Assembly: GCA_903960915.1 (NCBI GenBank)
Contig: CAJCCO010000043.1
Coordinates: 6,574-70,573, forward strand
Length of the DNA: 64,000 bases
From: an uncultured beta proteobacterium
GTDB taxonomy: Bacteria > Pseudomonadota > Gammaproteobacteria > Burkholderiales > Burkholderiaceae_C
Reading direction: 5' to 3'
How positions within the stretch are numbered: the stretch's first letter is position 1; each line of letters begins with the position of its first letter. Under the pieces are notes generated by a model. The model did not search any database. It saw nothing but the letters and a program-made list of their open reading frames with translations, and was not told the DNA's origin. A program made the translations under genes and the position numbers. Shown here piece after piece: positions 28,976 to 51,585 of this stretch.

Positions 28976-29091
28976 ACATTCAGACGAGCGCCTGTTCGGT
29001 GGGTAGGGAGCCTTACTTGGGGCTGCAATTACACTCCCAGCTACAAAAATGAAAGCTGGAAATGGCGAGTAAAAAAAATTTACAAGTAGGC

Positions 29092-30117
29092 ATGAAATCG
29101 TCCAACGTCAGTCATCACACGGCGGTCACCCTGGAGATGGTCGCCCAGAGGGCGGGGGTGTCCCCCAGCACGGTGTCACGTATTCTGAATGGCACGGCGG
29201 TCGTCAGTGATGTCAAAAAGCAAGCGGTTGATGAAGCCATTGCCACCTTGGGTTACGTGCCCAATCCGGTCGCCCGTGGCTTGGCGGGTGGCCGAACCTT
29301 GAGTATTGGCGTGATAACCCAGGCGATAGACAGCCCCTTTTATGGCGCCTCCTTGCGCGGTATCGAAGATGAGTTGGACCCTGCGGGGTACAGCCCCTTG
29401 TTTGTGAGTGCCCACTGGAACGCCGACCTGGAGGTGCGCCATATCGACATGCTGCGGTCGCGCCGTGTAGACGGCATCATTGTCTTGACCGGGCGGCTCA
29501 ATGACCAAGCGCTTAAAGCCTATGCCAAGAGCCTGCCATTTGTGGTGACGGGTCGGGCGATTAAGGGCCCAGGTCTCTTTGCACTGAATTTTGACAACTT
29601 CAAGGGTGGCCTGTTGGCAACCCGCCACCTTATTGAGTTGGGACACCAGCACATTGCTTTCATTGCCGGTGACCCTGAGCACCCTGATGCCATGGAGCGG
29701 TTGCAGGGTTATCAGGCGGCGCTCAAAGAGGCCGGTCTGGTGTTCGATCCGGCTTTGGTTATTCCCGGGCAGTACCACGAAGAAAGCGGCCTTCTGGCGA
29801 TCGATGCCTTGTTGGCAACGGGCAAGCGATTCACCGCCATCTTTGCTGCCAACGACCAGATGGCCGTTGGTGCCGCCCTGGGACTGCATCGCCATGGCCT
29901 GCGGGTGCCGCATGATGTGTCTTTGATTGGCTTTGATGATTTGCCAGCCTCCCTCTACTCGGTTCCGCCTTTGAGTTCCATCCATCACCCGGCTTATGAA
30001 ATTGGCCGCCAGGCGGCCTCTGCCATGCTGCAACTGGTGTCGGGCAAAAAACCCGACTTGGCAGTGAGCGAGCCGGTTCTGGTGGCGCGCGAATCAAGCC
30101 GCCGCCTGCCTACCTAA
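29092..30117 (+). CDS. LacI family transcriptional regulator (candidate regulator of the beta-glucan locus)
   Basis: HTH VTLEMVAQRAGVSPSTVSRILNG plus a periplasmic-binding-protein-like sugar domain. Start uncertain (ATG at 29062 or 29092). Confidence 0.85.
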   Translation: MKSSNVSHHTAVTLEMVAQRAGVSPSTVSRILNGTAVVSDVKKQAVDEAIATLGYVPNPVARGLAGGRTLSIGVITQAIDSPFYGASLRGIEDELDPAGYSPLFVSAHWNADLEVRHIDMLRSRRVDGIIVLTGRLNDQALKAYAKSLPFVVTGRAIKGPGLFALNFDNFKGGLLATRHLIELGHQHIAFIAGDPEHPDAMERLQGYQAALKEAGLVFDPALVIPGQYHEESGLLAIDALLATGKRFTAIFAANDQMAVGAALGLHRHGLRVPHDVSLIGFDDLPASLYSVPPLSSIHHPAYEIGRQAASAMLQLVSGKKPDLAVSEPVLVARESSRRLPT

Positions 30118-30211
30118 AGCCCAGACTACGGGCCTTTCCCAGGGCCTGCGCGCATTTTCCTACGGGATTTCCCTTGGGTAAATTCCTATTTTGCTAACCT
30201 ATAATAAATTT

Positions 30212-30225
30212 TGAAAGCGCTTTCA
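30212..30225. promoter_or_regulatory. LacI-type operator palindrome TGAAAGCGCTTTCA upstream of the ABC transporter operon
   Basis: Perfect 14-bp palindrome 82 nt upstream of the substrate-binding-protein ATG (30307). The same 14-mer recurs at 40644, 40798 and 45449. Confidence 0.7.
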
Positions 30226-30306
30226 TGCCATTGCTTCTGCCCATTGGCAAGATCTTGGCCAGCGTCACGGGCGCGACGTTTATATTGGTGTTCATCTGGG
30301 GCAAAA

Positions 30307-31584
30307 ATGAAATTTTCAAGCCACAAAGCACGCGCTGTTGTGCAAGCGCTGCGCATAAGCGTCTGCTTGCTCGCAGGAGCCCTGCTAGGGAGCGCAGCCA
30401 TGGCGCAACAAACCTTGACCGTGGCCGCTTTCCCGGCGATTGATGACATCGTCAAAGCTGCACTGCCGCAGTGGAAGAAAAAGCACCCCAACGTCGAAAT
30501 CAAGGTGGTCAGCCGGGCCTACGCCGATCACCACACAGCCATGACCACCGCGTTGTCAACGTCGTCCAATCTGCCCGATGTCATGGCGCTTGAATTTGGC
30601 TATGTCGCCCGATTTTCTGAAGGCGGTGGCTTGGAAGATCTGTCCCAAGCGCCCTACAAGGTCAAAGAGCAGCAAAGCCGTTTTGTCCCCTATGCCTTCC
30701 GCCAGGGAACGGCCATCTCGGGTGCCGTGATGGCAGTACCCACCGACATAGGCCCGGGCACACTGCTTTACCGCACAGACATTCTCAAAAAAGCCGGCAT
30801 CGCTGAGGCGGATCTGACCAAGTCCTGGGAGTCTTACATCAACGCGGGTATCAAGATCAAGGCCACAACCGGTGCGTACCTGATGCCCCACGCGCGTGAT
30901 ATCAAAGATATTTTGATTCGGACCGGTGTGCAAAACGGGGAGGGCCTGTACCTGGACGCCAAGGGCAAAGTGCTGGTGGATTCGCCTCGCTTTGTGCGTG
31001 CCTTTGAGTTGGCCAAAAAAGTGCGCGAGAACAAGCTCGACGGCAAGATCAACGCCTGGTCCAACGAATGGTCTGAAGGGTTCAAGCGCGGCACGATTGC
31101 AACGCAGATGTCGGGTGCTTGGTTGGCCGGCCATTTGAACAACTGGTTGGCCCCCAGCACCAAAGGCCAGTGGCAGGCCGCGCAGCTGCCAGAGGGCGCC
31201 TTTGGCTCGTGGGGGGGGAGTTTTTATGCCATTCCCAAGACTGGCAAAAACAAGGCCTTGGCCTGGGAATTCGTCCAAATGATGACCTTGACGCCAGAGC
31301 TCCAGTTGCAGGCCTTCAAGTCGCAAGACGCTTTTCCAGCCCTGGTTGCCGTGCACAACGACGCCTTCTTTGACCAGCCCATTGAGTTTCTGGCCAACCA
31401 AAAAGCCCGGCTGCTGTGGCGCCAGGCTGCAGCCCGTATTACGGCGGTAGATGTGCACAAGCTCGATCCGATAGCCGAGGAAATCATCAACACAGAAATG
31501 GACAAAGTGCTCGACCAGGGTAAGGACGTGCGCCAAGCCTTGGCAGATGCCAAGTCCCTGCTGGAACGGCGTGTGCGGCGCTAG
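30307..31584 (+). CDS. Sugar ABC transporter substrate-binding protein (family 1 solute-binding protein)
   Basis: From the ATG at 30307: MKFSSHKARAVVQALRISVCLLAGALLGSAAMAQQ (signal peptide). Size is about 425 aa, and two permease genes follow. Confidence 0.85.
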   Translation: MKFSSHKARAVVQALRISVCLLAGALLGSAAMAQQTLTVAAFPAIDDIVKAALPQWKKKHPNVEIKVVSRAYADHHTAMTTALSTSSNLPDVMALEFGYVARFSEGGGLEDLSQAPYKVKEQQSRFVPYAFRQGTAISGAVMAVPTDIGPGTLLYRTDILKKAGIAEADLTKSWESYINAGIKIKATTGAYLMPHARDIKDILIRTGVQNGEGLYLDAKGKVLVDSPRFVRAFELAKKVRENKLDGKINAWSNEWSEGFKRGTIATQMSGAWLAGHLNNWLAPSTKGQWQAAQLPEGAFGSWGGSFYAIPKTGKNKALAWEFVQMMTLTPELQLQAFKSQDAFPALVAVHNDAFFDQPIEFLANQKARLLWRQAAARITAVDVHKLDPIAEEIINTEMDKVLDQGKDVRQALADAKSLLERRVRR

Positions 31585-31605
31585 GCCGCGCTGACTCCTG
31601 AAGCG

Positions 31606-32541
31606 ATGAAACTCTTACACAAACTGCAACCCGGTCCGGACGTGGTCCCCTACGTCCTGTTGGCGCCCTTTGTGTTGCTGTTTCTGGTGTTTGGGGTGTT
31701 CCCCCTGGGCTTCTCGTTTTATCTGGCGTTTCAAAGCTGGGAGCCGACTGCGGGCCTGACGTCCATGAAATTTGTTGGCCTGGATAATTTTGCTTTCGCC
31801 ATCACGGACGAATGGTTTTGGAAATCGCTGAAAAACACCGCCTGGTTGGCCGTGGCCTCCGGGGTGCCGCAACATGTGGTGGCGATACCGTTGGCGGTGT
31901 TTATTCACAGCGCCTTCAAACGTGGCCGCAACAGCGTGGTGGGCGCGTATTTCCTGCCCTACATCACCTCCACCGTGGCCATTGCCATGATGTTCAGCAC
32001 CCTGTTCTCCACCGACTACGGGCTCATCAATATTGCCCTGCAGGCCATGGGCCAGTTGCCTGGGCTGGCTTGGTTGTTTCCTGCAGCGCCTATTGACTGG
32101 CTCAACCGGGCCGAAAACGTGAAGCCTGCTATTGCCCTGGTGGTGTTCTGGCGCTACGTGGGCTTCAACACCGTGCTGTACCTGGCTGCCTTGCAGACCA
32201 TTCCCAAAGACATGTACGAGGCCGCCACCATGGATGGCGCGGGGCGTTGGCAGCAGTTTTGGTTCATCACCCTGCCCAGCCTGAAGCCCATGATTTATTT
32301 TGGCGTCACGCTCAGTGTGGTGGGCGGCTTGCAGTTGTTCGAAGAGCCCTTCATTCTGACCGGGGGACGCGGCGGTACCGACCAGGCCGGCATGACCACC
32401 GCCATGTACATGTACCGCACGGCCTTCGAGTTCAATGATTTTGGTGGCGCCAGTGCCTTGTCGTGGCTGCTGTTTGTGTTTGTGGCCCTGTTGACCTGGT
32501 TGACCAACCGGGCCTTCAAGCCACGTGGCCCGGCCGCCTGA
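31606..32541 (+). CDS. Carbohydrate ABC transporter permease (MalF/UgpA-like)
   Basis: 311-aa polytopic protein with EAA loop YEAATMDGAGRWQQFWFITLPSLKP. Confidence 0.85.
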   Translation: MKLLHKLQPGPDVVPYVLLAPFVLLFLVFGVFPLGFSFYLAFQSWEPTAGLTSMKFVGLDNFAFAITDEWFWKSLKNTAWLAVASGVPQHVVAIPLAVFIHSAFKRGRNSVVGAYFLPYITSTVAIAMMFSTLFSTDYGLINIALQAMGQLPGLAWLFPAAPIDWLNRAENVKPAIALVVFWRYVGFNTVLYLAALQTIPKDMYEAATMDGAGRWQQFWFITLPSLKPMIYFGVTLSVVGGLQLFEEPFILTGGRGGTDQAGMTTAMYMYRTAFEFNDFGGASALSWLLFVFVALLTWLTNRAFKPRGPAA

Positions 32542-32548
32542 GGACAGG

Positions 32549-33379
32549 ATGATGATCAAGACCGATCGCATGGCGCCCCTTGCCGCCTACCTGTTGGTAG
32601 GGGTGGGTAGCTTGCTCATGCTGGCGCCCTTTTATTTCATGTTCGTGTTTGCCACCCATTCACGCACTGAAATTTTCAATTTGCCGCCGCCCTTGTTTTT
32701 TGGCAATGAATTTTTCAACAACCTGGCCCTCCTGACCAGCAAAATTCCATTCTGGCGCAGCCTGGGCTGGAGCTTGTATGTCGCCCTGGCCTCCACCGGG
32801 CTGACGCTGTTGTTTTGCTCCATGGGCGGGTATGCCTTTGCCCTGTTTGAGTTTCGCTTCAAGAAGCCTCTCTTCATGCTGGTGATGGGCACCATGTTGA
32901 TCCCCTCATTTCTCGGCATGATTCCGACGTTCATGATCATGGACGCTTTTGGCTGGATCGATCAACCCCGCGCGCTCTACATTCCGGGCGCGGCCAGTGC
33001 GTTTGGCATTTTCATGATGCGCCAGTTTGTGGCCTCCGCCATACCGCGTGATCTGATTGAAGCCGCACGCATGGACGGCTGCAGTGAGCTGGGCATTTAC
33101 TGGCGCATTGTGCTGCCCTTGCTGAGCCCGGCCATGGGAACTTTAGGCCTGATTACTTTCATTGCCTCCTGGAACAACTTCATTGGGCCTTTGATCGTGA
33201 TGCGCTCGCCCGAGATGTACACCTTGCCCTTGGCTTTGCGCAGCATGCAAAGCCCGGTCAATACCGAATGGGGTGCCGTGATGGCCGGTGCGGCTATTGC
33301 CACCTTGCCACTGCTGGTGTTGTTTGCCATTTCCTCTCGCCGTCTTATTGATGGACTGACCGCGGGTGCCGTGAAATGA
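32549..33379 (+). CDS. Carbohydrate ABC transporter permease (MalG/UgpE-like)
   Basis: Polytopic protein with EAA loop IEAARMDGCSELGIYWRIVLPLLSP. The ATG at 32549 is preceded by AGGACAGG; the track start at 32525 is a GTG. Confidence 0.85.
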   Translation: MMIKTDRMAPLAAYLLVGVGSLLMLAPFYFMFVFATHSRTEIFNLPPPLFFGNEFFNNLALLTSKIPFWRSLGWSLYVALASTGLTLLFCSMGGYAFALFEFRFKKPLFMLVMGTMLIPSFLGMIPTFMIMDAFGWIDQPRALYIPGAASAFGIFMMRQFVASAIPRDLIEAARMDGCSELGIYWRIVLPLLSPAMGTLGLITFIASWNNFIGPLIVMRSPEMYTLPLALRSMQSPVNTEWGAVMAGAAIATLPLLVLFAISSRRLIDGLTAGAVK

Positions 33380-33448
33380 GTCCACGCGGGGCAACATCGC
33401 AGCGCACTGTATTGACCACTGTTGAATTTAGATTGACCTGAAACATCC

Positions 33449-34822
33449 ATGAACATGACTGAGCTACCTACTTTGCACGAGCGCTTTCCGCCCCATTTTG
33501 TGTGGGGCGTAGCCACCAGCTCTTTTCAAATTGAAGGTGCACCTGAGCAAGATGGCAAGGGTCTTTCGATCTGGGACCAGTTTTGTCGCGTGCCCGGCGC
33601 CATTGCCGATGCCAGCAATGGCGATGTAGCCTGTGCGCACTACAGCCGCTGGCAGGAAGACCTCGATCTGATTGCTTCTTTGGGCGTGGATGCTTACCGC
33701 TTTTCCATTGCCTGGCCGCGCGTGCGCCCTGGTGGCTCCGGGGCCTGGAACGAGAAAGGGCTTGATTTTTACGAGCGCTTGGTGGACGGCATGCTGGCGC
33801 GCGGCGTTAAGCCCTATGTCACCTTGAACCATTGGGACCTTCCCCTGGAACTGCAAGCGACAGGCGGCTGGGCCAACCGCGATACGGTCCCTTTGTTTGT
33901 GGAATACGCCCGCAAAGTAGCAACGCGCCTGGGCGACCGGGTGCCCTCCATCACCACCCACAATGAACCTTGGGTGATGTCGGTTCTGGGCCATGAAAGC
34001 GGCGTATTCGCCCCGGGTCTGAAGAACCGTGCCATGGCCATGCAGGTGGCGCACCATTTGCTGCTCAGCCATGGCCTGTCGCTGCAAGCCCTGCGCGCAG
34101 ACGGCTGCCAGGCCGATCTGGGCATTGTGCTCAACCTGTCGCCCATGAGTGCCGCCACCGACAGCGCGGCTGACCAGGCCAAGAAGGTGCTGGAAGATGG
34201 TCGCTTGGTGCGCTGGTACATGGACCCACTGTTCAAGTCGGCTTACCCTGAGGATGTGCTGGCCTATCTGGGGCAGGACGCGCCCCAAGTACAAGCCGGC
34301 GATATGCAGGCCATTGCCACGCCCCTGGACTTTTTGGGCATCAACTACTACACCCGCTCCGTGGTGAGCGCTGATGATTCCTGGAAATCCAGCCAGAGTG
34401 GCTTGCCACTGACCGACATGGGGTGGGAAATTTACCCAGAAGGCCTGACCGAGCTGTTGCTGCGCGTGCACCAAGACTATGAATTGCCTGTTATTTTTGT
34501 GACCGAAAACGGCGGCGCTTTTCCGGACGTGTTGGATAACGGGCAAGTGCATGATGCCGCGCGCACCGAGTACATTGCTAAGCACATAGAAGCTATTGCA
34601 CAGGCGATGGACCAGGGTGTTCCGTTAGGGGGCTACATGGTGTGGAGCCTGCTGGATAATTTTGAATGGGCGTCGGGCTACGAGAAGCGTTTTGGCATCG
34701 TGCATGTCGACTTCGCCAGCCAACAACGAACGCCCAAGGACAGTGCGCTGTGGTACCAGGATTACCTGCGCTGTGTGCATGCGCACCGCGCCAGTCTGGC
34801 ACAGGCCACCACCGGAGCTTGA
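33449..34822 (+). CDS. GH1 beta-glucosidase (cytoplasmic)
   Basis: 457 aa with FVWGVATSSFQIEG, TLNHWDLP, acid/base TTHNEPW and nucleophile VTENG. No signal peptide. Confidence 0.9.
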   Translation: MNMTELPTLHERFPPHFVWGVATSSFQIEGAPEQDGKGLSIWDQFCRVPGAIADASNGDVACAHYSRWQEDLDLIASLGVDAYRFSIAWPRVRPGGSGAWNEKGLDFYERLVDGMLARGVKPYVTLNHWDLPLELQATGGWANRDTVPLFVEYARKVATRLGDRVPSITTHNEPWVMSVLGHESGVFAPGLKNRAMAMQVAHHLLLSHGLSLQALRADGCQADLGIVLNLSPMSAATDSAADQAKKVLEDGRLVRWYMDPLFKSAYPEDVLAYLGQDAPQVQAGDMQAIATPLDFLGINYYTRSVVSADDSWKSSQSGLPLTDMGWEIYPEGLTELLLRVHQDYELPVIFVTENGGAFPDVLDNGQVHDAARTEYIAKHIEAIAQAMDQGVPLGGYMVWSLLDNFEWASGYEKRFGIVHVDFASQQRTPKDSALWYQDYLRCVHAHRASLAQATTGA

Positions 34823-34823
34823 A

Positions 34824-35879
34824 ATGGGCCAAGTAGAACTGCAAGGTGTGCGTAAAAGTTTTGGCGAGCAGGAGGTCATCAAAGGCATTGACTTGACGGT
34901 ACGTGCCGGCGAGTTCATGGTTTTTGTGGGGCCCTCGGGGTGCGGCAAGTCCACCACCTTGCGCATGATCGCCGGGCTTGAAAGTATCAGCGCCGGCACC
35001 CTGTTGATCGATGGGGTGAAAGCCAACGGTCTGCGCCCGGCTGACCGGGGTGCGGCCATGGTGTTTCAAAGCTATGCGCTCTACCCGCACATGACGGTGG
35101 CAGAGAACATGGGCTTCTCGCTCAAGATGGCGGGTGTGGGTAAAAGTGAGCGCGAGACACAGGTTAGACGCACCGCCGATATCTTGCGCATGACCGAGCT
35201 GCTGGACCGCTTTCCCAAAGAGTTGTCGGGCGGGCAGCGCCAGCGCGTGGCCATTGGTCGGGCCATTGTGCGCAAGCCCAAAGTGTTTTTGTTTGACGAG
35301 CCCTTGTCCAACCTGGACGCGGCCTTGCGGGTGAACATGCGCATTGAACTCTCGCGCCTGCACCAGGAGCTGGGGACCACCATGATTTATGTCACCCACG
35401 ACCAGGTGGAGGCCATGACCATGGGTGACCGCATTGCCGTTTTCAACCAAGGAAAAATTGAGCAGCTCGGGGCGCCCATGGATTTGTACAACCGCCCCGC
35501 TAACCAATTTGTGGCCACTTTTTTAGGCGCGCCACGCATCAACCTCATCCACCAACCTGCTGCCGATGCCACCCCCGCGCACCGCCAGTTATGGGCATTG
35601 CTGCAGTTAAAGCCCGAGCCTTTGGCGCAGCACATGGGACTGCGCCCCGAGCACTTGCACGTTGATCTGCAAGGCCAGGGTATTCCTGCCACCGTGGTAC
35701 TGGCTGAGCATTTGGGCGACACCTCGGTGCTGTATCTGCGCGTGGACGGTGTGAGTGACTTGCTCAATGCCAAAGTGGGTGCGCAGTTCAGTGCCTGTGC
35801 CAAGGGGCAGGTGGTGGGGCTGGTGCCTGATGCGCAGGCCGCGCTGGCGTTTGACGCACAGGGCCAATTGCTGGCTTGA
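34824..35879 (+). CDS. Sugar ABC transporter ATP-binding protein (MalK/UgpC/MsiK-like)
   Basis: From the ATG at 34824: MGQVELQGVRKSFGEQEVIKGIDL. Walker A GPSGCGKST, LSGGQRQRVAIGRA, FDEPLSNLD and a C-terminal regulatory/TOBE-like domain are present. Confidence 0.9.
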   Translation: MGQVELQGVRKSFGEQEVIKGIDLTVRAGEFMVFVGPSGCGKSTTLRMIAGLESISAGTLLIDGVKANGLRPADRGAAMVFQSYALYPHMTVAENMGFSLKMAGVGKSERETQVRRTADILRMTELLDRFPKELSGGQRQRVAIGRAIVRKPKVFLFDEPLSNLDAALRVNMRIELSRLHQELGTTMIYVTHDQVEAMTMGDRIAVFNQGKIEQLGAPMDLYNRPANQFVATFLGAPRINLIHQPAADATPAHRQLWALLQLKPEPLAQHMGLRPEHLHVDLQGQGIPATVVLAEHLGDTSVLYLRVDGVSDLLNAKVGAQFSACAKGQVVGLVPDAQAALAFDAQGQLLA

Positions 35880-35899
35880 GCTGGCTTGCCCCAAGCGGC

Positions 35900-37255: not shown

Positions 37256-37278
37256 GCGGCAAGGCTCTCGCTTGGCGA

Positions 37279-37308
37279 ATAAAAAAGGCGCAGCAAATGC
37301 TGCGCCTT
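37279..37308 (-). terminator. Rho-independent terminator after the GH17 gene (minus strand)
   Basis: 10-bp perfect stem AAGGCGCAGC/GCTGCGCCTT (37285-37294/37299-37308) with a 4-nt loop. On the minus strand it is followed by TTTTTTATT. Confidence 0.75.
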
Positions 37309-37324
37309 GTGTGAACGGCCCAGG

Positions 37325-39280: not shown

Positions 39281-40626
39281 AACGAATACACCACGCCTAC
39301 TGTGAACCAGTTGCCTTGGTCGGTGACGCGCGAATCTATCTTGGTGAACGATTCGTTGTCTGGTGCTGACATGGGCGAGAGTCCCACCCGGCCGTAATGC
39401 ACCATGCCGGCTTGAACGTTGAATTGCACGCCCTGACCGTAGTCGTACTTCAGTCCGGCGGTGTTGATCAGGGCCGAGTTGCTCTGGCCGCGTTCGCTAG
39501 GGTTAGCGGTCTTGGCCTTGCCCAGGTAGACCATGCCGGTAGAGGCTGTCCATTGGCCCATGCGGTAAAGCACACCCAACATGAGGTCTGTGGAGCGCGC
39601 TGAATAGCCAGGGTTGCCAATGCCGCTGCGCACGCCGTCCCAGTCCACGTTGAACATCTCGTTCCAAGTATTGCCACCGGTCATAACGGCATTGGCACCA
39701 CTCCAGAAATTTCGCCGAATGCCACCCGACACCTCCCACTGGCTGGTGACCTGGTAGCGCGCCATCAGCATGGCTATGCCCTGGTCAGAGCCGGTGAGCT
39801 TGCTGTCGTCTTGCGCAAACGGTGTCAAGCCGGTGAATGGGCCATGCGACCAGGCCATGGGCGTGCCGTTTTTGCCGTGCTGCAGAGTGGCGTCCATCAC
39901 CAGGTCACCCTTGTGGAACTGGGTGTACAGCTCCATGAAGCTGGGTTTGTTGATCTTGAAAGCGGTATTGCCCTGGTCGTACGTGCCTTCCACCACCAAG
40001 TCGCCATCGGCCACATCAAACATGCGCGAGGTGTAGCGCACCGCGCCCGTCAACATGCCGTAGCCCGCGCCGCTGGAGCCCCAGGCGCTGGCTACCCCGA
40101 CGTTGGTGCCGTAGGGGTAATCGGCCACGCTCCAGCCGCGTGTGGTCATGGCGCCAATGCGCAGGCTGCCAAAATCTTCGTGGCTAACCGCCACATTTTT
40201 TTCGTACCAGAAGTCCTTCACGTCCACCTCGCCATCGCGCCAGCGTTGGCTCAGCAGGCCTGACAACTTGACGCCTTTGCCCAGGTCGTACTTGAAACCC
40301 AGGTAAGGTTGTATCTGGGAGAAGGCGCTGGTCTGCGTGTCGAACTTGGCCCCTTGAACCAACTCGTCGGCCCAGATGCGCTGCTTGTTCTCGGTGGGGA
40401 AGAGCTGGCAGTCCTTGCATTGGTTGCTGCCAGCGCCCACGGACACTTCGGCAAACCCGGTCAGGCTGAACATGCCATTGGGGCCGAAGTCCAGGGCCTG
40501 GCCTAGGCTGGGTAGGCCAGCCAGGCAAAGAGCTGCGTACAGCCGGCCCAGCCTCGCCCCCGAGCGGGGTGCCAAAGACAGGGCGGATGAAGTACGCTGG
40601 GAAAGAGGAGGAGGTTTACAAATCAT
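39277..40626 (-). CDS. Outer-membrane beta-barrel porin (candidate glucan-oligosaccharide channel)
   Basis: 449 aa with signal peptide ...LCLAGLPSLGQA|LDF. It is Gly/aromatic-rich with alternating strands and a C-terminal VGVVYSF. It has a 4-nt overlap with the GH17 gene and a LacI-type operator 18 nt upstream of its start. Confidence 0.7.
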   Translation of the reverse strand: MICKPPPLSQRTSSALSLAPRSGARLGRLYAALCLAGLPSLGQALDFGPNGMFSLTGFAEVSVGAGSNQCKDCQLFPTENKQRIWADELVQGAKFDTQTSAFSQIQPYLGFKYDLGKGVKLSGLLSQRWRDGEVDVKDFWYEKNVAVSHEDFGSLRIGAMTTRGWSVADYPYGTNVGVASAWGSSGAGYGMLTGAVRYTSRMFDVADGDLVVEGTYDQGNTAFKINKPSFMELYTQFHKGDLVMDATLQHGKNGTPMAWSHGPFTGLTPFAQDDSKLTGSDQGIAMLMARYQVTSQWEVSGGIRRNFWSGANAVMTGGNTWNEMFNVDWDGVRSGIGNPGYSARSTDLMLGVLYRMGQWTASTGMVYLGKAKTANPSERGQSNSALINTAGLKYDYGQGVQFNVQAGMVHYGRVGLSPMSAPDNESFTKIDSRVTDQGNWFTVGVVYSF

Positions 40627-40643
40627 GGATAGGCCTGAAATTT

Positions 40644-40657
40644 TGAAAGCGCTTTCA
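40644..40657. promoter_or_regulatory. LacI-type operator palindrome upstream of the porin-GH17 operon
   Basis: Perfect TGAAAGCGCTTTCA, 18 nt upstream of the porin start codon (40626, minus strand). Confidence 0.7.
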
Positions 40658-40797
40658 AGCTTAGAATTTTAGAGAGAATTTGCGCCAGGTGTCAATCAGA
40701 AGTCGTCCGTGTTTACCCTCGATAGGCTCAATTCAAGGTCACTCTTGGGCGTTTGCTTTGCCTGCCAATCAAGTTAGGGTAAACCATTCCTGCTTTT

Positions 40798-40811
40798 TGA
40801 AAGCGCTTTCA
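40798..40811. promoter_or_regulatory. LacI-type operator palindrome upstream of the GH81-GH16 operon
   Basis: Perfect TGAAAGCGCTTTCA, 47 nt upstream of the GH81 ATG (40858). Confidence 0.7.
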
Positions 40812-40857
40812 TTATGATGCCAGCCTTACCGTAAATAATATTTTTAAGAGCATCTTC

Positions 40858-43122
40858 ATGAAGTTAAACCCCGGCTGGCTTTTGTTTTTGGGTCTGGCCT
40901 GCACCCCCGGTTCCCCGCTCTACGCGCAGCCGGTAAAAGCGGGAGCGGGTAATTATTTTCAAGCCCCCAAGGGCGCAGACCGCGTGGTGCCCAAGGCCCC
41001 TTACCGCACCCCCGCCATGCTGGCCAAGGCAGCCCCCACCAACCAATGGTATTCAGCGTTGATTTTTAGCGCCGAGCCTGAAGTGCTGTTTGCGCACCCG
41101 CTCACCGTGCGTGCCACCAAGACCGGGCTGGAGTTGGCCCTGCCGAGCAAAGAGGTGGTGCCCACGGAACGCAAAGACGTTGAAATTCACTACCCGCACC
41201 GCGACCCGCTGCTGATTTCTTCTACCGCCATGGCGGCGGCTCAACCGCTGCTGGCCAAAGCCGGTGACTGGTCCATTGACATTGCGCTGGGTGGCGCGCA
41301 AGCGCCCTTGCTGGCTACCGTGGCGCATGGCAGTCCGTATGTGTATTTTCAGTTCAAGCAGGGCGACCTGAGGCTGCAGTTGCCGGCAACCGCGCAGCGT
41401 ATTGAGCAGGCCGATGCGCGGGTGTTGGCCTTGCGCGTCAAGAACAAGTCTTACGCCTTGTTTGGCCCCAGCGGTGTGCGCTGGGAGCAGGTGTCTGCTA
41501 CCGAGTGGCTGGGCCGTCTGCCCCCCGGTAAGGGGTATGTCTCGGTTGCTGCATTGCCTGACGAGCAGCCGGCCACACTGGCCTTGCTGGCACGCCATGC
41601 CTACGCCTATTTGCAAGACACCCGGGTAGATTGGCGGGTGGACAGTGAGAGCAGCGAAGTGGAGACCACGTTCAAAGCCAGCACCCAGGTTATGGAAGGT
41701 GAAGATGCAGGCCCGCTCTTGGGCCTTTACCCGCACCACTGGAACGGCAATGCCCAGGTACAGCCTAAATTAGGCCCCGCCTTTGACACCTTGCGCGGCG
41801 CCATTCGGCTACTGGCTGCGCCTGAGTTCAAAACGCGCACCGCTTACAACGGCTTTGTGCCGTATTGGCCTGGGGTGAAAGCATCGCCACGCCAAGATGA
41901 ACTCAAAACCCTCATGACTGCCGACAAGCGCAACGCGCGCCGAATGATGTTGGAGTTGGGCAACGGGCCGTACTGGCAAGGAAAAGGCTTGCAGCGCATC
42001 ACCAAGTTGATGGACGTGGTGGAGCAGCAAGGCGACCTGGAAGGGCGCGACCAGTTGCTCAAAACGCTCAAGACCCGCATCGAATCCTGGTTCTCGGGGG
42101 ACAGCAGCAAAACCTATTTTCACTACGACAAACAGCTCGGCACGGTGGTGGCGTATCCAGAAGAATATTTCAGCATTGAGCAGATGAACGACCACCACTT
42201 TCACTACGGCTACTGGATTCGTGCCATGGCCGATATCGCCCTGCGTGACCCCCAGTGGGCCGCCCAAGACAAGTGGGGCGGTATGGTTGATTTGCTGGTG
42301 GCAGATATTGCCACGGGCAAACGTGGCGGCGCAGACTTTCCCTTTGTGCGTAACTTTGACCCCTATGAAGGCCACTCCTGGGCCTCGGGTGTGGGCTTGG
42401 GCGCATTCGGCAACAACCAGGAATCCTCCTCGGAGGCCATCAATGCCTGGGCAGGCTTGATCATGTGGGGCGAGATCACCGGTAACCGCCAGTTGCGCGA
42501 CCTTGGCATGTACCTCTACACCAGCGAGATTGAGGCCATCAACTACTACTGGTTCGATATTCATGGCAAGGTTTTCCCGCCCGAGTACAAACATGTAGAA
42601 ACCAGCATGCTGTTTGGCGGCAAGTACGCCCACAACACCTGGTGGACCGACGAGCCACGGCAAATCAAGGGCATCAACTTATTGCCCATCACCACCTCAT
42701 CCACCTACCTGGGGGCTAACCCCCAGTTTGTGCAGCGCAGCCTAAACACACTCAAGCCCGATACCGCCATCTTCAACGGCCGGGGCAAGTACGCCGAGCC
42801 TAAAGACATTTGGCAAGACATCTTCGCCAAGTACCTGGGCCTGGCCGACCCGGTGCAAGCGCTGAACCAGTGGGACCGCTGGGGCTCGGTGGAGCTGGGC
42901 GACACCCGCTCACACGCCTTGCACTGGTTGCTGAACCTGCAAGACATGGGCCCACCAGACCTGAGCACGCGTGCCAACACCACTTTTTACAGCGTCTTCA
43001 AGCGGGCTGATGGCCGCAAAACTTACCTGGCTTACAACGCGGGAAAGACGCCCTTGCTGGTCAAGTTTTCAGACGGCAAGGAAATGAAGGTTGAACCCGG
43101 CACGCTGGGTCAAGCGCAGTAA
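40858..43122 (+). CDS. GH81 endo-beta-1,3-glucanase (secreted)
   Basis: 754 aa with signal peptide MKLNPGWLLFLGLACTPGSPLYA|QP. GH81 hallmark blocks are MNDHHFHYGYWIRAMADIA, RNFDPYEGHSWASG and ESSSEAINAWAG. Confidence 0.85.
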   Translation: MKLNPGWLLFLGLACTPGSPLYAQPVKAGAGNYFQAPKGADRVVPKAPYRTPAMLAKAAPTNQWYSALIFSAEPEVLFAHPLTVRATKTGLELALPSKEVVPTERKDVEIHYPHRDPLLISSTAMAAAQPLLAKAGDWSIDIALGGAQAPLLATVAHGSPYVYFQFKQGDLRLQLPATAQRIEQADARVLALRVKNKSYALFGPSGVRWEQVSATEWLGRLPPGKGYVSVAALPDEQPATLALLARHAYAYLQDTRVDWRVDSESSEVETTFKASTQVMEGEDAGPLLGLYPHHWNGNAQVQPKLGPAFDTLRGAIRLLAAPEFKTRTAYNGFVPYWPGVKASPRQDELKTLMTADKRNARRMMLELGNGPYWQGKGLQRITKLMDVVEQQGDLEGRDQLLKTLKTRIESWFSGDSSKTYFHYDKQLGTVVAYPEEYFSIEQMNDHHFHYGYWIRAMADIALRDPQWAAQDKWGGMVDLLVADIATGKRGGADFPFVRNFDPYEGHSWASGVGLGAFGNNQESSSEAINAWAGLIMWGEITGNRQLRDLGMYLYTSEIEAINYYWFDIHGKVFPPEYKHVETSMLFGGKYAHNTWWTDEPRQIKGINLLPITTSSTYLGANPQFVQRSLNTLKPDTAIFNGRGKYAEPKDIWQDIFAKYLGLADPVQALNQWDRWGSVELGDTRSHALHWLLNLQDMGPPDLSTRANTTFYSVFKRADGRKTYLAYNAGKTPLLVKFSDGKEMKVEPGTLGQAQ

Positions 43123-43146
43123 TTCACAAGCCAACCAACTGAGTCA

Positions 43147-45330
43147 ATGATGTCATTTTTTCTTTTCCCGCTGGGGTCCAAGTGGCGTCTGGCTCACGCC
43201 TTTGCACTCGTTTGCCTTGCACTGTCGGCATGCGGTGGGGGTGAAAAGGTCGCAGACAGCGTAGCGCCCACATTGGTCGTATCCGACGCATCGCCTGGGG
43301 CAAGTGCAACAGGGGCATGGACCGTGTTGTTTGCTTTTAGCGAAAGTGTGGGAACGAGCTTTAGCGCGGAGGATATCGCCCTCACCGGGAGTATCGCGGT
43401 AGGGGCGTTGGAAAAAATTGATGAAAAAAACTACAGCCTGCGGCTAACACCAGACGCCAACAGCAGTGGTGTACTGACCCTGAGCGTGGCCGCCAATAAG
43501 TTCAGCGACGTGGCGCTCAACAACAACGCACAAGCCAGTAGTTACAGTAAAAATTACAACACCCAAACCGTCACTTCGGACTGGGTAATGGACTGGAGTG
43601 AAGAGTTCAATGGAACGCAGCTCAACACCAACGTCTGGAGTTTTGATACCGGTTCAGGTGGCTGGGGAAACAATGAATCACAGTACTACCAAGCCAGCAA
43701 CGCCACCGTGAAAGATGGATTTCTAACGATCACGGCCAAGCAAGAGCGGGTTGGAGACGCCGATTACACCTCGACGCGTATCCAGTCCTCGCGCAAAAAA
43801 AGTTTTACCTATGGGCGCTTTGAAATGCGCGCCAAGTTACCCGCCACCCAAGGTATGTGGCCTGCGTTTTGGTTGCTGGGCGATGCCTGTAACTCGTTTA
43901 ATTTGTATGGTGGCACGGTCAACTGGCCCGACTGTGGCGAAATTGACATCATGGAAATGATTGGCGGCCTAACCGACCGAACCGGCGACTACACATCCTA
44001 CGGCACCTTGCATTACCGCAATGCCTTGAACTTCAACCCGGCCCCGTCTTTCTCGAACAGAAATGCCAAGCCACTGTCTGAAGATTTTCATGTCTACACC
44101 ATGGACTGGACGCCCCAAGGCTTTACCTGGTATGTCGATGGCATCGCCTTCGGTACCAAATTGATCAGCGCTGACATGGCGGCTTTTCACAAACCCTATT
44201 TCATGCTGCTGAATCTGGCCGTAGGGGGTAATTGGGGTGGTTGGGTTGACAGCTCCACGCGCTTCCCTCAGACCTTCGTGATTGACTATGTACGCCACTA
44301 CACCCGCCCTTGGCCGGCCAAGAACAGCACGGCTGGTTTACCTTCAAGCTGGCACCTGGCCAGCGACCCCCACCTGAACGTGGCGGGCGGCACGCAAACG
44401 GGTGCGCAGCCGGTGGTCTCGCTGGGTGAGACAGCCATTTCTTGGTACAGCCCATTTCTCACCGGCAGCTACGATGCGGGGGCCTGGACCGCCAGCATCT
44501 GGACCCTGGCCAGTTCAGGCAGTTCACCTGTTCGCGCCCGCATTTACAGGCGATCGGCCACGACCGGGTTCGAGTCGATGCTTGGAGAAACCACCGTAGA
44601 CCCAGCCACCACGGGCAGCGGCAACCATGTCACTCGCTTCACGTTCAAGGCCATGCCAGCTATGGTGCTGAGCAACGAAAGTATTCGCCTTGAATTAAGC
44701 AAGCTCAGCGGCCCCATCTTGAAACTGGTTGTCAACGGCAATGATTTCGACTCCAACCTGACCATGCCCTGGAGTACGGCGGGCACTTACGGCGCTTACC
44801 CCTCGGCTGCATCGTTGGCATTTCCCGCCGCCACTGCATCAACAAATGCCGGCAACACCAGCACCGCCGCTGCAACCTTGGGCGTCTACGCTGATACCGC
44901 CCTGCTGTCGAGTTGGCCTGGTTTGAAAGCTCCAGACGCCTACGCCAGAGGACAGGTTCAAGACACCCTGCTCCTGCCTTTTGAAGGCAGCCACAGCCTC
45001 AGTGTTAACTTGAACTTTGATGGCAGTGGCTGGCAGTTTGTGGGTGAGCCCCTGGACATTACCCCCTACGCCAAGCTGCGTTTCATGATCAAGACCAGCT
45101 CAGCCCCTCAGTACGTGCGCGTGCGCCTGGCCGGCACGGGGCAGGTGGGCAGCGTGCCCTTGTCGGCTTACCTGGCTTCTACGTCTGAATGGCAAGAGAT
45201 TGTGATCCCCCTGTCGGCCTTTGGCACAGCTGCGCTGGGCGCTGTTTCGGTGCCTTTCAGTCTTGAATCAGTGGGCGGTGCTGCCAGCTTTAGCGCCCAG
45301 GTGGACAAGGTTTACTACTCGAAAAATTGA
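43147..45330 (+). CDS. GH16 laminarinase-type beta-1,3(4)-glucanase lipoprotein (Ig-like stalk + GH16 + extra domain + CBM-like C-terminus)
   Basis: 727 aa with lipobox LALSAC|GGG. An N-terminal Ig-like module carries FSESVGTSFSAEDIALTG. GH16 motifs are GWGNNESQYY, GMWPAFWLLG and catalytic GEIDIMEM. Confidence 0.85.
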   Translation: MMSFFLFPLGSKWRLAHAFALVCLALSACGGGEKVADSVAPTLVVSDASPGASATGAWTVLFAFSESVGTSFSAEDIALTGSIAVGALEKIDEKNYSLRLTPDANSSGVLTLSVAANKFSDVALNNNAQASSYSKNYNTQTVTSDWVMDWSEEFNGTQLNTNVWSFDTGSGGWGNNESQYYQASNATVKDGFLTITAKQERVGDADYTSTRIQSSRKKSFTYGRFEMRAKLPATQGMWPAFWLLGDACNSFNLYGGTVNWPDCGEIDIMEMIGGLTDRTGDYTSYGTLHYRNALNFNPAPSFSNRNAKPLSEDFHVYTMDWTPQGFTWYVDGIAFGTKLISADMAAFHKPYFMLLNLAVGGNWGGWVDSSTRFPQTFVIDYVRHYTRPWPAKNSTAGLPSSWHLASDPHLNVAGGTQTGAQPVVSLGETAISWYSPFLTGSYDAGAWTASIWTLASSGSSPVRARIYRRSATTGFESMLGETTVDPATTGSGNHVTRFTFKAMPAMVLSNESIRLELSKLSGPILKLVVNGNDFDSNLTMPWSTAGTYGAYPSAASLAFPAATASTNAGNTSTAAATLGVYADTALLSSWPGLKAPDAYARGQVQDTLLLPFEGSHSLSVNLNFDGSGWQFVGEPLDITPYAKLRFMIKTSSAPQYVRVRLAGTGQVGSVPLSAYLASTSEWQEIVIPLSAFGTAALGAVSVPFSLESVGGAASFSAQVDKVYYSKN

Positions 45331-45448
45331 AGGCCTGTTGAAGCTCTGTTGAAGGCAGGGCCCCTCTAGGTACAAGCCCTAGTGGGCAACCTAGGGAAAG
45401 CCCTAGTTCTTCGGCATTGTTTTAATCACCCTGCTGCCGTACTATTCA

Positions 45449-45476
45449 TGAAAGCGCTTTCATGAATGCGCTTTCA
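45449..45476. promoter_or_regulatory. Tandem LacI-type operators upstream of the glycan-binding lipoprotein gene
   Basis: Perfect TGAAAGCGCTTTCA (45449-45462) is directly followed by the imperfect copy TGAATGCGCTTTCA (45463-45476). They lie 48 nt upstream of the ATG at 45524. Confidence 0.7.
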
Positions 45477-45523
45477 TTTCGAAGTTCTGAGATCAATCAT
45501 CATTACCAGCCAGGAGTTAACCC

Positions 45524-47380
45524 ATGAAACAACTTACAAAACAATTTGCCCTGTCGGCTAGCGCCCTGGCTGCGGCCCTACTGATTACCGCCTGCGGCGG
45601 TGGTGCCTCAACAGATGACACAACGGCACCAACAGTGACCATTACCGATAGCGTGGCTGATACTACGGCAACTGGCAATGTGACGTTTACGTTCACCTTC
45701 AGCGAAAGTGTGGGTGCCAGTTTTACAGTGGATGACATCACGGTTACCGGCGGTGTTAAATCTACTTTCACCATGGCTGACACTGGTTTGAGTGCCACCT
45801 TGTTGGTGGTGCCAACGGCCAATACCACGGGTACGATTTCAGTCGCGGTAGCGGCAGACAAATTCAAGGACGCAGCAAACGTCGTCAATACTCTGTCAGC
45901 CACAGCAACCCAGGCTTACAACACGGTGACGGAAGGTACCGCGCTCAACTTTGAGACGGGCGGAAAAGGCGCTGCATTTACCTGGAAAACTTTTGAGAAT
46001 GATACGAACCCTGCCGTTGAAATTGTGGCGAACCCCAATACAACAGGTATCAATTCATCAACCAAGGTGGCTAAATTCACGACATTGGCAACGGGGGCTC
46101 CCTACGCTGGGTTTGAAAGCAAGCATGGTACAGATTTGGGGACTGTGAAACTGAGTGCTGCTAACGCCCTTGTGAAGATCATGGTCTACAAAACGGTTAT
46201 CAGTGATGTGGGCATTAAATTTGCCAACGCTACAGATGGTTCTACTGGTGAGATCAAAGTGCCCAATACAAAAGTTAATGAATGGGAAGAATTAACTTTT
46301 GACTTCTCTGCTGTGATTGGTGGTGTGAATGATGCAATTGATCAAATCATATTCATGCCGGATTTCAAAGCGCGAAGTGCTGACAATATTATCTACATTG
46401 ACAACATAACCTTCTCAGCCAAGCCAGTAGCTGCGACATTTCCTGTCTCTTTTGATGAGGCAACTCCGCCAAAATTTGCGGGGTTTAATGGAGCCGAGGA
46501 CACATCTATTAAACCTGGGCCAACCGGTGGTACCGGTGATGCCTTGAAGATCATTCGCAACACTGGTGATACTTGGGCTGGCGCCAAGTTGACGGAAATG
46601 AGCGTGGGTATCACGACAACAAACAACACGGTATCCGCAAAGGTTTACTCACCCACAGCGGGGATTCCTTTCGAACTTAAATTAGAGGGCAGCAAAAGTG
46701 ATACTGGAGAAATCGCTGCAAATGAGGCGGTTGTTGTTGGTTGGCAAACCCTCACCTGGACGGTGCCTAGCGGCAAGATTGGGCCAGTTCGGGATGTTGT
46801 TGTCTTTTTACCCAATAATCGGACGGTGGGTGCCGGCGAAATTTATTACATCGACGATATCAAGATAGTCGCTGGCGCGGTTGCTCCCGTTGTGGTCTCC
46901 ACATTGCCGGTTACCTTTGATGGTGTCGGTGTCACATATAAATTTACTGGCTTTGGTGGTACATCCGCGGAACTGGCGGCGGATCCAGCGGGTGGCGCCA
47001 ATAAGGTGGCTAAGGCCATTAAATCGGCAACTGCAGAATCTTGGGCGGGCGTCACTTTCTCCACAGGTGCGAGCGATTCAATAGCCACGGTTCCATTCAC
47101 TTCCACCGCTAAGTCGATGACCTTGCGTGTGTATTCGCCTGCTTCTGGTATCCCAGTTCTTTTGAAGCTTGAGGATGCGTCGAATAAAGATAAGAATACA
47201 GAGGTCCAGGTAAACACGACAGCGGCTAATGCGTGGCAAACCCTGACCTTTACTTTTGCCGGTGCAGACGTGACTACAACCTACAACAAGGCCTCGGTGT
47301 TCTATAACTTTGGGACGACTGGTGCAACGGGTGGCGGTGGCACCTTCTACTTTGACGATCTGACCTTTGTGGCGCCCTAA
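45524..47380 (+). CDS. Lipoprotein with Ig-like stalk and three CBM-like repeats (candidate surface glycan-binding protein)
   Basis: 618 aa with lipobox LLITAC|GGG and an Ig-like module FSESVGASFTVDDITVTGG, as in the GH16 protein. Three ~150-aa modules follow, each ending in a Y(I/Y/F)DD/N(I/L)(T/K)F/I motif (IYIDNITFS, IYYIDDIKIV, FYFDDLTFV). Confidence 0.65.
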   Translation: MKQLTKQFALSASALAAALLITACGGGASTDDTTAPTVTITDSVADTTATGNVTFTFTFSESVGASFTVDDITVTGGVKSTFTMADTGLSATLLVVPTANTTGTISVAVAADKFKDAANVVNTLSATATQAYNTVTEGTALNFETGGKGAAFTWKTFENDTNPAVEIVANPNTTGINSSTKVAKFTTLATGAPYAGFESKHGTDLGTVKLSAANALVKIMVYKTVISDVGIKFANATDGSTGEIKVPNTKVNEWEELTFDFSAVIGGVNDAIDQIIFMPDFKARSADNIIYIDNITFSAKPVAATFPVSFDEATPPKFAGFNGAEDTSIKPGPTGGTGDALKIIRNTGDTWAGAKLTEMSVGITTTNNTVSAKVYSPTAGIPFELKLEGSKSDTGEIAANEAVVVGWQTLTWTVPSGKIGPVRDVVVFLPNNRTVGAGEIYYIDDIKIVAGAVAPVVVSTLPVTFDGVGVTYKFTGFGGTSAELAADPAGGANKVAKAIKSATAESWAGVTFSTGASDSIATVPFTSTAKSMTLRVYSPASGIPVLLKLEDASNKDKNTEVQVNTTAANAWQTLTFTFAGADVTTTYNKASVFYNFGTTGATGGGGTFYFDDLTFVAP

Positions 47381-50278: not shown

Positions 50279-50344
50279 AGCCTCAGTCCGTGGCGGGCTG
50301 CGTGTATTATCAAAAGCGTCATGATCCTTGCAAAGCTTTATTCA

Positions 50345-51209: not shown

Positions 51210-51219
51210 ATTTGTCCTT

Positions 51220-51585
51220 ATGAAAACGGCCATGCCTGCAAAGGGCTTCACGCTGATTGAGGTGCTGGTGGCGCTGGGCATTGTGGCCATTGCGCTGATG
51301 GCCGGTTTGCAGGCTACCGGCGCCTTAAGCAACCACGCGCAGCGCCAGGTGGACGTGTTGCTGGCGCAAACCTGCGCAGAAAATGAATTGATCAAGTTGC
51401 GCCTGGCCAAACAAATGCCCGGCGTGGGCGACAGCGTGGTGGACTGCCCGCAAGCGGGGCAAACGTTCACGGTGAAGCTGGTGGTGCGGCCTACGCCCAA
51501 CCCGAGTTTCATGCGCGTGGAGGCGCAGGTCAGTACGCCGCAATACCCGGTACTGCAAGTGATGACGGTGTTGGGGCGTTACTGA
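51220..51585 (+). CDS. gspI: Type II secretion system minor pseudopilin GspI
   Basis: MKTAMPAKG|FTLIEVLVALGIVAIAL. About 121 aa, in the conserved position. Confidence 0.8.
   Translation: MKTAMPAKGFTLIEVLVALGIVAIALMAGLQATGALSNHAQRQVDVLLAQTCAENELIKLRLAKQMPGVGDSVVDCPQAGQTFTVKLVVRPTPNPSFMRVEAQVSTPQYPVLQVMTVLGRY

Follow-up and report, generated by a model that had tools for sequence, protein, structure and literature searches.

Laminarin-type glucans represent a major algal carbon flux, and their consumption by bacteria has been worked out mostly in marine Bacteroidota (SusC/SusD systems) and in the TonB-dependent gene clusters of marine Gammaproteobacteria. The subject here is a beta-glucan locus of a Comamonadaceae bacterium from the freshwater plankton, belonging to the Rhodoferax group, situated within a window of 64,000 nucleotides (the whole stretch of DNA analysed) of contig CAJCCO010000043.1, assembly GCA_903960915.1. 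Genes for five glycoside hydrolase (GH) families are accompanied there by those for a predicted porin, an ATP-binding cassette (ABC) importer, a lipoprotein with carbohydrate-binding modules (CBMs) and a LacI-family regulator. With good probability, the locus is a regulon under LacI repression that serves the catabolism of a soluble and branched beta-1,3-glucan, that is, algal laminarin or chrysolaminarin and possibly fungal or oomycete glucan.

The chitin system of Vibrio comprises secreted chitinases, the chitoporin ChiP and a chitobiose ABC importer, and the maltose system of E. coli and Klebsiella comprises LamB, MalEFGK and pullulanase, a lipoprotein that leaves the cell through the Pul type II secretion system. 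The same logic is found in the locus described here: an extracellular or surface depolymerase, a dedicated porin, a binding-protein-dependent ABC importer and cytoplasmic glycosidases. The likeness extends to the components, as the porin model has the fold of the Vibrio harveyi chitoporin VhChiP (PDB entry 5mdo, E 8.3e-20), the ATPase is MalK/UgpC-like and a type II secretion cluster lies beside the lipoprotein glycanases, as with pullulanase. However, the substrate and the enzyme families are different, the regulator is a LacI-type repressor instead of MalT or ChiS, and the porin matches no porin model of Pfam and is only about 13% identical to the chitoporin.

The laminarin polysaccharide utilisation loci (PULs) of Bacteroidota, such as Formosa and Christiangramia forsetii, overlap with this locus in their enzyme set, which includes GH16 of the laminarinase type, GH17, GH30 and sometimes GH81 (accessible part of PMC6246565). 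The same source describes the crystal structure of the Formosa enzyme FbGH17A, which cleaves the laminarin backbone, together with FbGH30, which takes off the beta-1,6 branches. Further shared features are an outer-membrane lipoprotein GH16 with an N-terminal immunoglobulin (Ig)-like module and, going by the available part of 10.1101/2023.09.07.556657, a non-catalytic lipoprotein in which an Ig-like module precedes repeated CBMs of the family of PDB entry 8qx6. An earlier note on this DNA, made from its letters alone, had proposed a functional analogy with these loci in the absence of SusC/SusD and of any TonB-dependent receptor, and both parts of the proposal stand. The overlap in enzymes and CBM lipoprotein sustains the analogy, and no TonB-dependent receptor (TonB_dep_Rec, Plug) or SusD family was found among the 59 distinct open reading frames (ORFs) of the window scanned with Pfam (E cut-off 0.001, 1e-5 for one part). 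In contrast with the PULs of Bacteroidota, a porin would serve the outer membrane and a CUT1 ABC system the inner-membrane uptake, the regulator belongs to the LacI family, the carriers are Burkholderiales of fresh water and GH30 is predicted to be cytoplasmic, so that debranching would concern imported oligosaccharides instead of the polymer. In its functioning the locus resembles a PUL without being one, as neither SusC nor SusD was found among the ORFs scanned.

Finally, the laminarin clusters of marine Gammaproteobacteria contain GH3, GH16, GH17, GH30 and occasionally GH5 and GH81, without SusD, according to the part of PMC8371827 that is accessible. They share with the present locus a Proteobacterial combination of carbohydrate-active enzymes lacking SusD; in them, however, TonB-dependent transporters take the role of SusC (same part of PMC8371827), which is filled here by a porin and an ABC importer. 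Full-text searches, with subscription journals and supplementary tables outside their scope, returned no published description from Comamonadaceae of this locus, the operator or the porin.

Enzymes, glycan binding and transport

The locus (29062-50278) begins on the plus strand with the regulator, followed by the binding protein, two permeases, GH1 and the ATPase; its middle part, on the minus strand, holds GH30, GH17 and a 449-aa protein of no family, and its final part, again on the plus strand, GH81, GH16, a 618-aa lipoprotein and an overlapping lipoprotein/barrel pair. The genes are the following:

29062..30117, plus strand: LacI-family regulator, presumed repressor of the locus (PF00356, PF00532/PF13377)
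30307..31584, plus strand: periplasmic solute-binding protein of a CUT1-type sugar ABC importer (PF01547, 91.6 bits)
31606..32541, plus strand: ABC permease, MalF/UgpA-like (PF00528; similarity to NCBIfam UgpA and GlcT models below their cut-offs)
32525..33379, plus strand: ABC permease, MalG/UgpE-like (PF00528)
33449..34822, plus strand: GH1 beta-glucosidase, predicted cytoplasmic (PF00232, TIGR03356)
34824..35879, plus strand: ABC ATPase of the MalK/UgpC type with TOBE_2 domain (PF00005, PF08402)
35900..37255, minus strand: GH30, predicted cytoplasmic, SrfJ/glucocerebrosidase-like (PF02055 and PF17189)
37325..39280, minus strand: predicted GH17 beta-1,3-glucanase, lipoprotein with a C-terminal extension of about 235 aa (PF00332, 6fcg)
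39277..40626, minus strand: predicted outer-membrane porin, 449 aa, 16-stranded barrel (AlphaFold2 model and Foldseek)
40858..43122, plus strand: predicted GH81 endo-beta-1,3-glucanase, secreted (PF17652, 6fop)
43147..45330, plus strand: GH16 lipoprotein with a Big_12 Ig-like domain, a GH16 laminarinase domain and a C-terminal extension of about 340 aa (PF19078, PF00722)
45524..47380, plus strand: lipoprotein of the surface-glycan-binding type, 618 aa, lipobox ITAC, Big_12 and three CBM modules (Pfam, AlphaFold2, structure comparison)
47466..50278, plus strand: overlapping genes for a lipoprotein (557 aa) and a beta-barrel (380 aa), no known family

The five GH families had been assigned in the earlier note, within a unit set at 29062..47380. 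Profile and solved-structure searches agree with every one of these assignments and the genes do lie there, but the end of the unit has to be revised, since it probably runs past 47380 to 50278. GH81 scores 186 bits against PF17652 (cut-off 25.6), with the N-terminal model PF03639 slightly below its cut-off (23.2 vs 25.6 bits). It aligns with PDB 6fop across residues 27-750 (E 1.2e-166) and with the entries of BH0236 at about 4e-110, and keeps the segments HHFHYGY, DPYEGHSWASG and ESSSEAINAW, which presumably hold the catalytic residues. In GH16, the catalytic domain (PF00722, 79.2 bits) is joined to Big_12 (PF19078); its 20 best PDB matches are all laminarinases or beta-1,3-glucanases, and the segment GEIDIME, carrying the E-x-D-x-x-E catalytic motif, is aligned with the top one (3azx, E 6.7e-53). 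These closest solved relatives point to the laminarinase-type subfamily GH16_3. GH17 reaches 40.9 bits against PF00332 (cut-off 28.2) and has as its top solved relative 6fcg, 'Glycoside hydrolase, GH17 family' (E 1.2e-28), which we take to be the Formosa endo-laminarinase FbGH17A; both glutamate-bearing segments, VGNE and IGETGW, align with it. GH1 matches PF00232 at 509 bits and the equivalog model TIGR03356, 'GH1 family beta-glucosidase', at 610.9 bits (cut-off 478.5), its translation containing the NEP and TENG motifs. GH30 matches PF02055 (276.6 bits) as well as PF17189 in Pfam, and its alignments display the QNEP and TEGC segments.

The cellular locations proposed in the same note, with GH81 secreted, GH16 and GH17 as lipoproteins and GH1 and GH30 lacking signal peptides, are predicted for the orthologues as well, GH1 and GH30 being cytoplasmic. 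GH81 has an N-terminus of the signal-peptidase-I type, and the mature start Q-x-VKAGAG is common to the printed orthologues. The alternative that GH81 is a lipoprotein, prompted by the string ...LGLAC..., was rejected, as no more than 13 of 74 orthologues contain a lipobox-like string and a signal-peptidase-I end before Q-x-VKAGAG is common to those printed. The lipobox of GH16 (LSAC, then glycines) is found in all of 12 orthologues and that of GH17 (LASC, then glycines) in 51 of 62, as started by the script; several of the remaining GH17 orthologues visibly carry CGGGG behind a mis-called long N-terminus. Lipobox-like motifs are absent from the 33 GH30 orthologues and the 28 GH1 orthologues, and no signal peptide is visible in 14 printed GH1 N-termini.

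The 618-aa lipoprotein, listed in the note as a multi-CBM protein, could be described further by fold and profile matches. Its first 136 residues, with the lipobox and Big_12 (32-125), share 35% identity with the N-terminal part of the GH16 lipoprotein. The AlphaFold2 model, built with 42 relatives (predicted local distance difference test score, pLDDT, 81.8), has three beta-sandwich modules beyond Big_12, at about 139-298, 304-452 and 460-618; they were recognised through the model only, comparison of the protein with itself by BLASTP revealing no internal repeats. VIA-align overlays module 1 on PDB 8qx6, 'Novel laminarin-binding CBM X584', with a Z of 17.1 and a root-mean-square deviation of 2.4 Å (146 of 164 residues aligned, 26% identity), which exceeds the next single-domain matches (CBM30, CBM29, CBM11, CBM22) by about 3-4 Z units. 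Modules 2 and 3 resemble CBM22, CBM27 and CBM15 in their fold (Z 11-14). Moreover, the family profile (42 members) gave a single match against the PDB, again 8qx6 (E 4.9e-11), via its second module.

According to the available part of its description (10.1101/2023.09.07.556657), the CBM of 8qx6 ('CBMxx') comes from Cf-SGBP, an outer-membrane lipoprotein of a laminarin PUL in which Ig-like modules are followed by four such CBMs; it binds laminarin, was crystallised with laminaritriose, and belongs to a family that, per the authors, occurs also in Proteobacteria and outside the sea. By sequence and modelled fold, the CBM modules of the present lipoprotein are homologous to this family, and the predicted architecture matches that of Cf-SGBP. 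The note had based the substrate on family membership only; the families stand, but the 'only' does not, because homology to a CBM crystallised with laminaritriose adds an independent basis. A further proposal, that the C-terminal extensions of GH16 and GH17 are homologous to these modules, was not supported (hhalign probabilities 0.2 and 1.1).

The importer anticipated in the note is of the CUT1 type: SBP_bac_1, two BPD_transp_1 permeases and a MalK-like ATPase with TOBE were found by Pfam and NCBIfam. The binding protein probably starts at ATG 30307, from which it has an ordinary signal peptide ending AMA/QQ; the listed ORF starts at TTG 30211, inside an operator. Its nearest solved relatives appear to bind beta-linked gluco-oligosaccharides, 8bfy going by its molecule name and 5ysb presumably being such a binder. 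The ATPase reaches NF008653 (433.9 bits vs a cut-off of 432), and its start was placed at 34824, as the match begins at residue 55 of the listed ORF.

The 449-aa protein, which the note had called a porin, has no match among the Pfam and NCBIfam models, even with the E limit raised to 5, and the support for that claim comes from the predicted fold. A protein atlas places it among clusters named porin, and the AlphaFold2 model (53 orthologues, pLDDT 89.3) has 16 long strands, with third-loop helices at 163-183. Foldseek relates it to BpsOmp38, the chitoporin of Vibrio harveyi, Omp32 and PorB, with E values between 1e-17 and 1e-20 and about 13% identity; the entries include 8jto (E 2.7e-20), 5mdo and the Omp32 structure 2fgq (E 3.2e-19), these three with a probability of 1.00 and a target template-modelling score of 0.73-0.76. 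As modelled, the protein has the fold of the 16-stranded porins (Omp32, OmpF, ChiP), inward-folded loop 3 included. Its gene overlaps at the stop with the start of the GH17 ORF, and adjoins GH81 in 70 of 80 related loci; this comparison set amounts to 1.27 Mb in all.

A pathway for the polymer can be proposed from these parts. Secreted GH81 and the GH16 laminarinase, which would be anchored in the outer membrane, would cleave the glucan, held at the cell surface by the three-CBM lipoprotein. The oligosaccharides would pass the outer membrane through the dedicated 16-stranded porin instead of a TonB-dependent transporter, and the GH17 lipoprotein, translated together with the porin, would trim them further. 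The periplasmic binding protein and the CUT1 importer would then bring short beta-gluco-oligosaccharides into the cytoplasm, where GH1 may act on beta-1,3-glucosides as well as other beta-glucosides, and GH30 on gentiobiose or the beta-1,6 branches, with glucose as the product. An imported di- or oligosaccharide could act as inducer, freeing the palindromic operators of the LacI repressor.

Operators and transcription units

The regulator has a helix-turn-helix domain (PF00356, 52.5 bits) and an effector domain (PF00532, 134.4 bits; PF13377 also matched), and reaches no NCBIfam equivalog cut-off. Scanning of the intergenic regions yielded a candidate operator, the perfect 14-bp LacI-type palindrome TGAAAGCGCTTTCA. 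At up to one mismatch it has 5 matches in the window, vs 0.23 expected, and these are the only ones in the whole assembly (3,723,683 bases, completeness 98.8%), where a control pattern gave 0. They are listed here together with a hairpin of the same region:

30212..30225, unstranded: operator O1, TGAAAGCGCTTTCA, 6 bases past TATAAT (30200-30205), upstream of the binding-protein gene
37285..37308, minus strand: terminator-like hairpin between GH17 and GH30, 10 pairs followed by TTTTATT
40644..40657, unstranded: operator O2, just downstream of a near-consensus promoter reading into the porin gene
40798..40811, unstranded: operator O3, 47 bases before the GH81 start codon
45449..45476, unstranded: operators O4 (perfect) and O5 (one mismatch) in tandem, preceding the gene of the CBM lipoprotein

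O1 and O2 sit immediately after -10 elements, the porin promoter being TTGACA-18-TAAAAT (40695-40666, minus strand), and O2 and O3 both fall within the 231 bp that separate the divergently oriented porin and GH81 genes. Furthermore, the positions are conserved in relatives. The 80 related loci contain 252 operator matches, vs 0 for the reversed motif; at least two matches are present in 68 of 70 porin-GH81 divergent regions, and one is found between the LacI and binding-protein genes in each of the 12 loci having both. A helix-turn-helix, an effector domain and regulon-specific palindromic putative operators are thus found together, as in a LacI-family repressor regulon, and the single regulon put forward in the earlier note gains direct support from the sequence, with a caveat for GH30. 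The arrangement supports four units under putative operator control: binding protein-permease-permease-GH1-ATPase; porin-GH17, perhaps with GH30; GH81-GH16; and the CBM lipoprotein, perhaps with the lipoprotein/barrel pair.

Neither member of this pair has a family match in the Pfam and NCBIfam scans. The gene for the 557-aa lipoprotein begins after a gap of 85 nucleotides from the CBM gene, without an operator between them. Homologues of the lipoprotein lie downstream of GH81 in 19 of the 80 loci and homologues of the barrel in 10, sometimes duplicated; an operator match stands directly before the lipoprotein homologue in 13 of the 19 and before the preceding CBM gene in 5 more. The pair is probably the tail of the CBM lipoprotein transcription unit.

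Distribution and neighbouring genes

The closest locus, in a lake Rhodoferax metagenome-assembled genome, has 94-97.5% nucleotide identity. Other carriers are Limnohabitans, Ideonella, Rubrivivax, Rhizobacter, Hydrogenophaga, Polaromonas, Roseateles/Paucibacter and other Burkholderiales, mostly from lake metagenomes, and DNA of the window is matched in lake, freshwater and river metagenomes from several studies. Limnohabitans planktonicus II-D5, Limnohabitans sp. Rim11 and Ideonella paludis KCTC 32238 are cultured carriers. The adjacency GH17-porin-GH81 occurs in 63 of the 80 loci, and the ABC genes, GH1, porin and GH81 occur together in 22; GH30 was found in 33, GH16 in 13 and all five families in 6. 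These counts are lower bounds, as contig ends truncate many of the loci. Within the family, a GH81 orthologue is carried by 18 of 300 sampled genomes (17 of 201 genera, G000 included), the sole other sampled genome of the same genus having none detected.

Two gene bodies, those of GH17 (37443-39279) and the CBM lipoprotein (45637-47493), are divergent alleles with respect to the nearest relative (L001): they are 68-76% identical or unalignable, the proteins being 53% and 40% identical, with flanks 94-97.5% identical and the proteins of neighbouring genes at 96-100%. From these alignments, it looks like the cell-surface parts (GH17, CBM lipoprotein) undergo allele swapping.

Genes for type II secretion lie on both sides of the locus:

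50321..60869, plus strand: complete type II secretion cluster gspG-H-I-J-K-L-M-N-D-E-F (Pfam type II secretion families)
26902..27372, minus strand: GspC-like gene on the opposite side of the locus (PF11356, 30.5 bits vs a cut-off of 27)

The gspG gene begins 42 nucleotides after the barrel gene, the gap holding a weak hairpin only. It is found downstream of the glucan genes in 16 of the 80 related loci, and in all 13 loci inspected at least one operator-preceded gene lies between the glucan genes and gspG. Secretin genes number four in the genome. By analogy with pullulanase, the cluster is an attractive candidate for the exporter of GH81 and perhaps of the lipoproteins.

A GlcD-like FAD (flavin adenine dinucleotide)-linked oxidase gene occupies 27548-28975, between the GspC-like and LacI genes. 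The locus as a simple insertion between this gene and gspG was considered and rejected: in four relatives without GH81 the two are far apart or on different contigs. For the same reason, its orthologue being far from gspG or on another contig in those four, the GlcD-like gene is probably not part of the locus. Farther away, a carbon-phosphorus lyase phosphonate cluster (2215-15185) comprises phnG, phnH, phnI, phnJ, ABC ATPases, a phosphonate-binding protein and permeases, as well as a GntR-type regulator and DUF1045, and seems to have no connection with the glucan locus. At 18232-19272, a Rieske/VanA-type oxygenase gene similar to that of vanillate O-demethylase lies beside flavin monooxygenase and alpha/beta-hydrolase genes.

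Alternative explanations and biological meaning

Several findings weigh against the reading of the locus as a laminarin regulon. The first group concerns GH30, which resembles SrfJ and glucocerebrosidase in sequence more than the endo-1,6-glucanases: among solved structures it is closer to SrfJ (2wnw, E 2e-95) and to human GBA (glucosylceramidase, about 4e-88) than to 5ngk (8.2e-64), and it falls short of the curated BT3312-type endo-1,6-glucanase model NF053856 (275.4 bits vs a cut-off of 700), therefore its substrate could differ. Its gene, in addition, has no operator of its own and sits after the strong terminator-like hairpin; in many relatives the gap between GH17 and GH30 is of 1-46 nucleotides and without a T run, which fits co-transcription. 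Hydrolysis by GH17 is less than certain because bacterial GH17 enzymes include transglycosylases (PMC11005184, accessible part). PDB sequence searches with the C-terminal extensions of GH16 and GH17 gave nothing meaningful, and no match at all for that of GH17, the hints elsewhere being sub-threshold (Exop_C 21.4 bits, SGBP_B_XBD 17.6 bits, Atlas scores 0.82). The outer-membrane face that bears the lipoproteins is something we infer, and the top solved relative of the binding protein, 8bfy (E 2.3e-34), is named 'putative secreted cellobiose-binding'. The RNA evidence is weak as well. The expression sources are contigs, not reads, from four runs, of which X17 and X18 are probably DNA; X19 and X20, RNA libraries which may contain DNA, gave short contigs, mostly of relatives 90-99% identical, covering parts of the permG, GH1, ATPase, GH30, porin, CBM lipoprotein, 557-aa lipoprotein and barrel genes. 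Levels, starts and co-transcription are unreadable from contigs that come mostly from relatives.

The first alternative is that the cluster serves chiefly to lyse the walls of eukaryotic cells (chytrid fungi, oomycetes, yeasts, algal callose): GH81, GH16 and GH17 would open beta-1,3/1,6-glucan walls and the import genes would do no more than salvage the products. The solved relatives of GH81 are endo-beta-1,3-glucanases, a Paenibacillus GH81 came from a yeast-cell-wall screen (PMC9609564, accessible part) and the type II secretion cluster adjoins the locus, all of which would suit such a role. However, soluble laminarin is the ligand of the CBM to which the modules are homologous, two endo-enzymes out of three are predicted to be lipoproteins anchored to the cell instead of being freely released, the carriers are mostly lake plankton genomes, and the combination of repressor, porin, ABC importer and cytoplasmic glucosidases corresponds to the design of a nutrient pathway. 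A mainly lytic role is on balance improbable; it differs from feeding in the source of the substrate and not in its chemistry, and both can coexist.

The second alternative would direct the system to other beta-glucans, such as cello-oligosaccharides, mixed-linkage beta-1,3/1,4-glucan or beta-glucosides in general. The cellobiose annotation of 8bfy speaks for it, as does the breadth of GH1, a beta-glucosidase family of wide range; laminarinase-type GH16 enzymes can also cut mixed-linkage glucan (accessible part of PMC7961093). Against this, the solved relatives of GH81 and GH17 are annotated as beta-1,3-glucanases, laminarinases or beta-1,3-glucanosyltransferases, the homologue of the CBM modules binds laminarin, and no cellulase family (GH5, GH9 and similar) appeared in the Pfam scan of the core region (16 ORFs between 27548 and 50788), so this target seems quite improbable. 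Finally, the enzymes might remodel beta-glucan made by the cell itself, either periplasmic cyclic glucans or an exopolysaccharide resembling curdlan. GH17 would then be one of the transglycosylases that exist among bacterial GH17 enzymes (PMC11005184, accessible part), and its predicted membrane anchoring beside the porin is in favour of this. Such remodelling is very improbable, as no glucan synthase family was found among the 59 ORFs scanned, the sugar-responsive repressor, importer and cytoplasmic glucosidases indicate catabolism, and the presence of the locus in only 18 of the 300 family genomes is what is expected of an accessory nutritional trait.

Returning to the catabolic regulon for branched beta-1,3-glucan, a broader view may be advanced tentatively, as a possibility that is at present rather doubtful. 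Freshwater Comamonadaceae and Sphaerotilaceae may share a TonB-independent class of polysaccharide utilisation, with secreted and surface glycanases, a glycan-binding lipoprotein, a porin, an ABC importer and one LacI operator code, wedded physically and perhaps functionally to type II secretion as pullulanase is to Pul. This class could be a main chrysolaminarin route of lake Betaproteobacteria such as Limnohabitans and Rhodoferax, its CBMs sharing ancestry with those of marine Bacteroidota and its surface parts being swapped between near-identical strains.

For the biology of these bacteria, the locus represents a different solution to laminarin consumption, in which a porin is combined with an ABC importer and regulation would need no more than a simple repressor; many genera of abundant lake Betaproteobacteria have it conserved. 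It provides several handles on the freshwater consumers of chrysolaminarin: its 14-bp operator is a tag for the regulon in genomes and metagenomes, its porin stands for a family that Pfam does not model, its putative surface binding protein has CBMs of the laminarin type, and some of its carriers are in culture. Moreover, it would be a compact model for the oligosaccharide size limit of porin-based uptake as compared with the 'selfish' TonB-dependent one.

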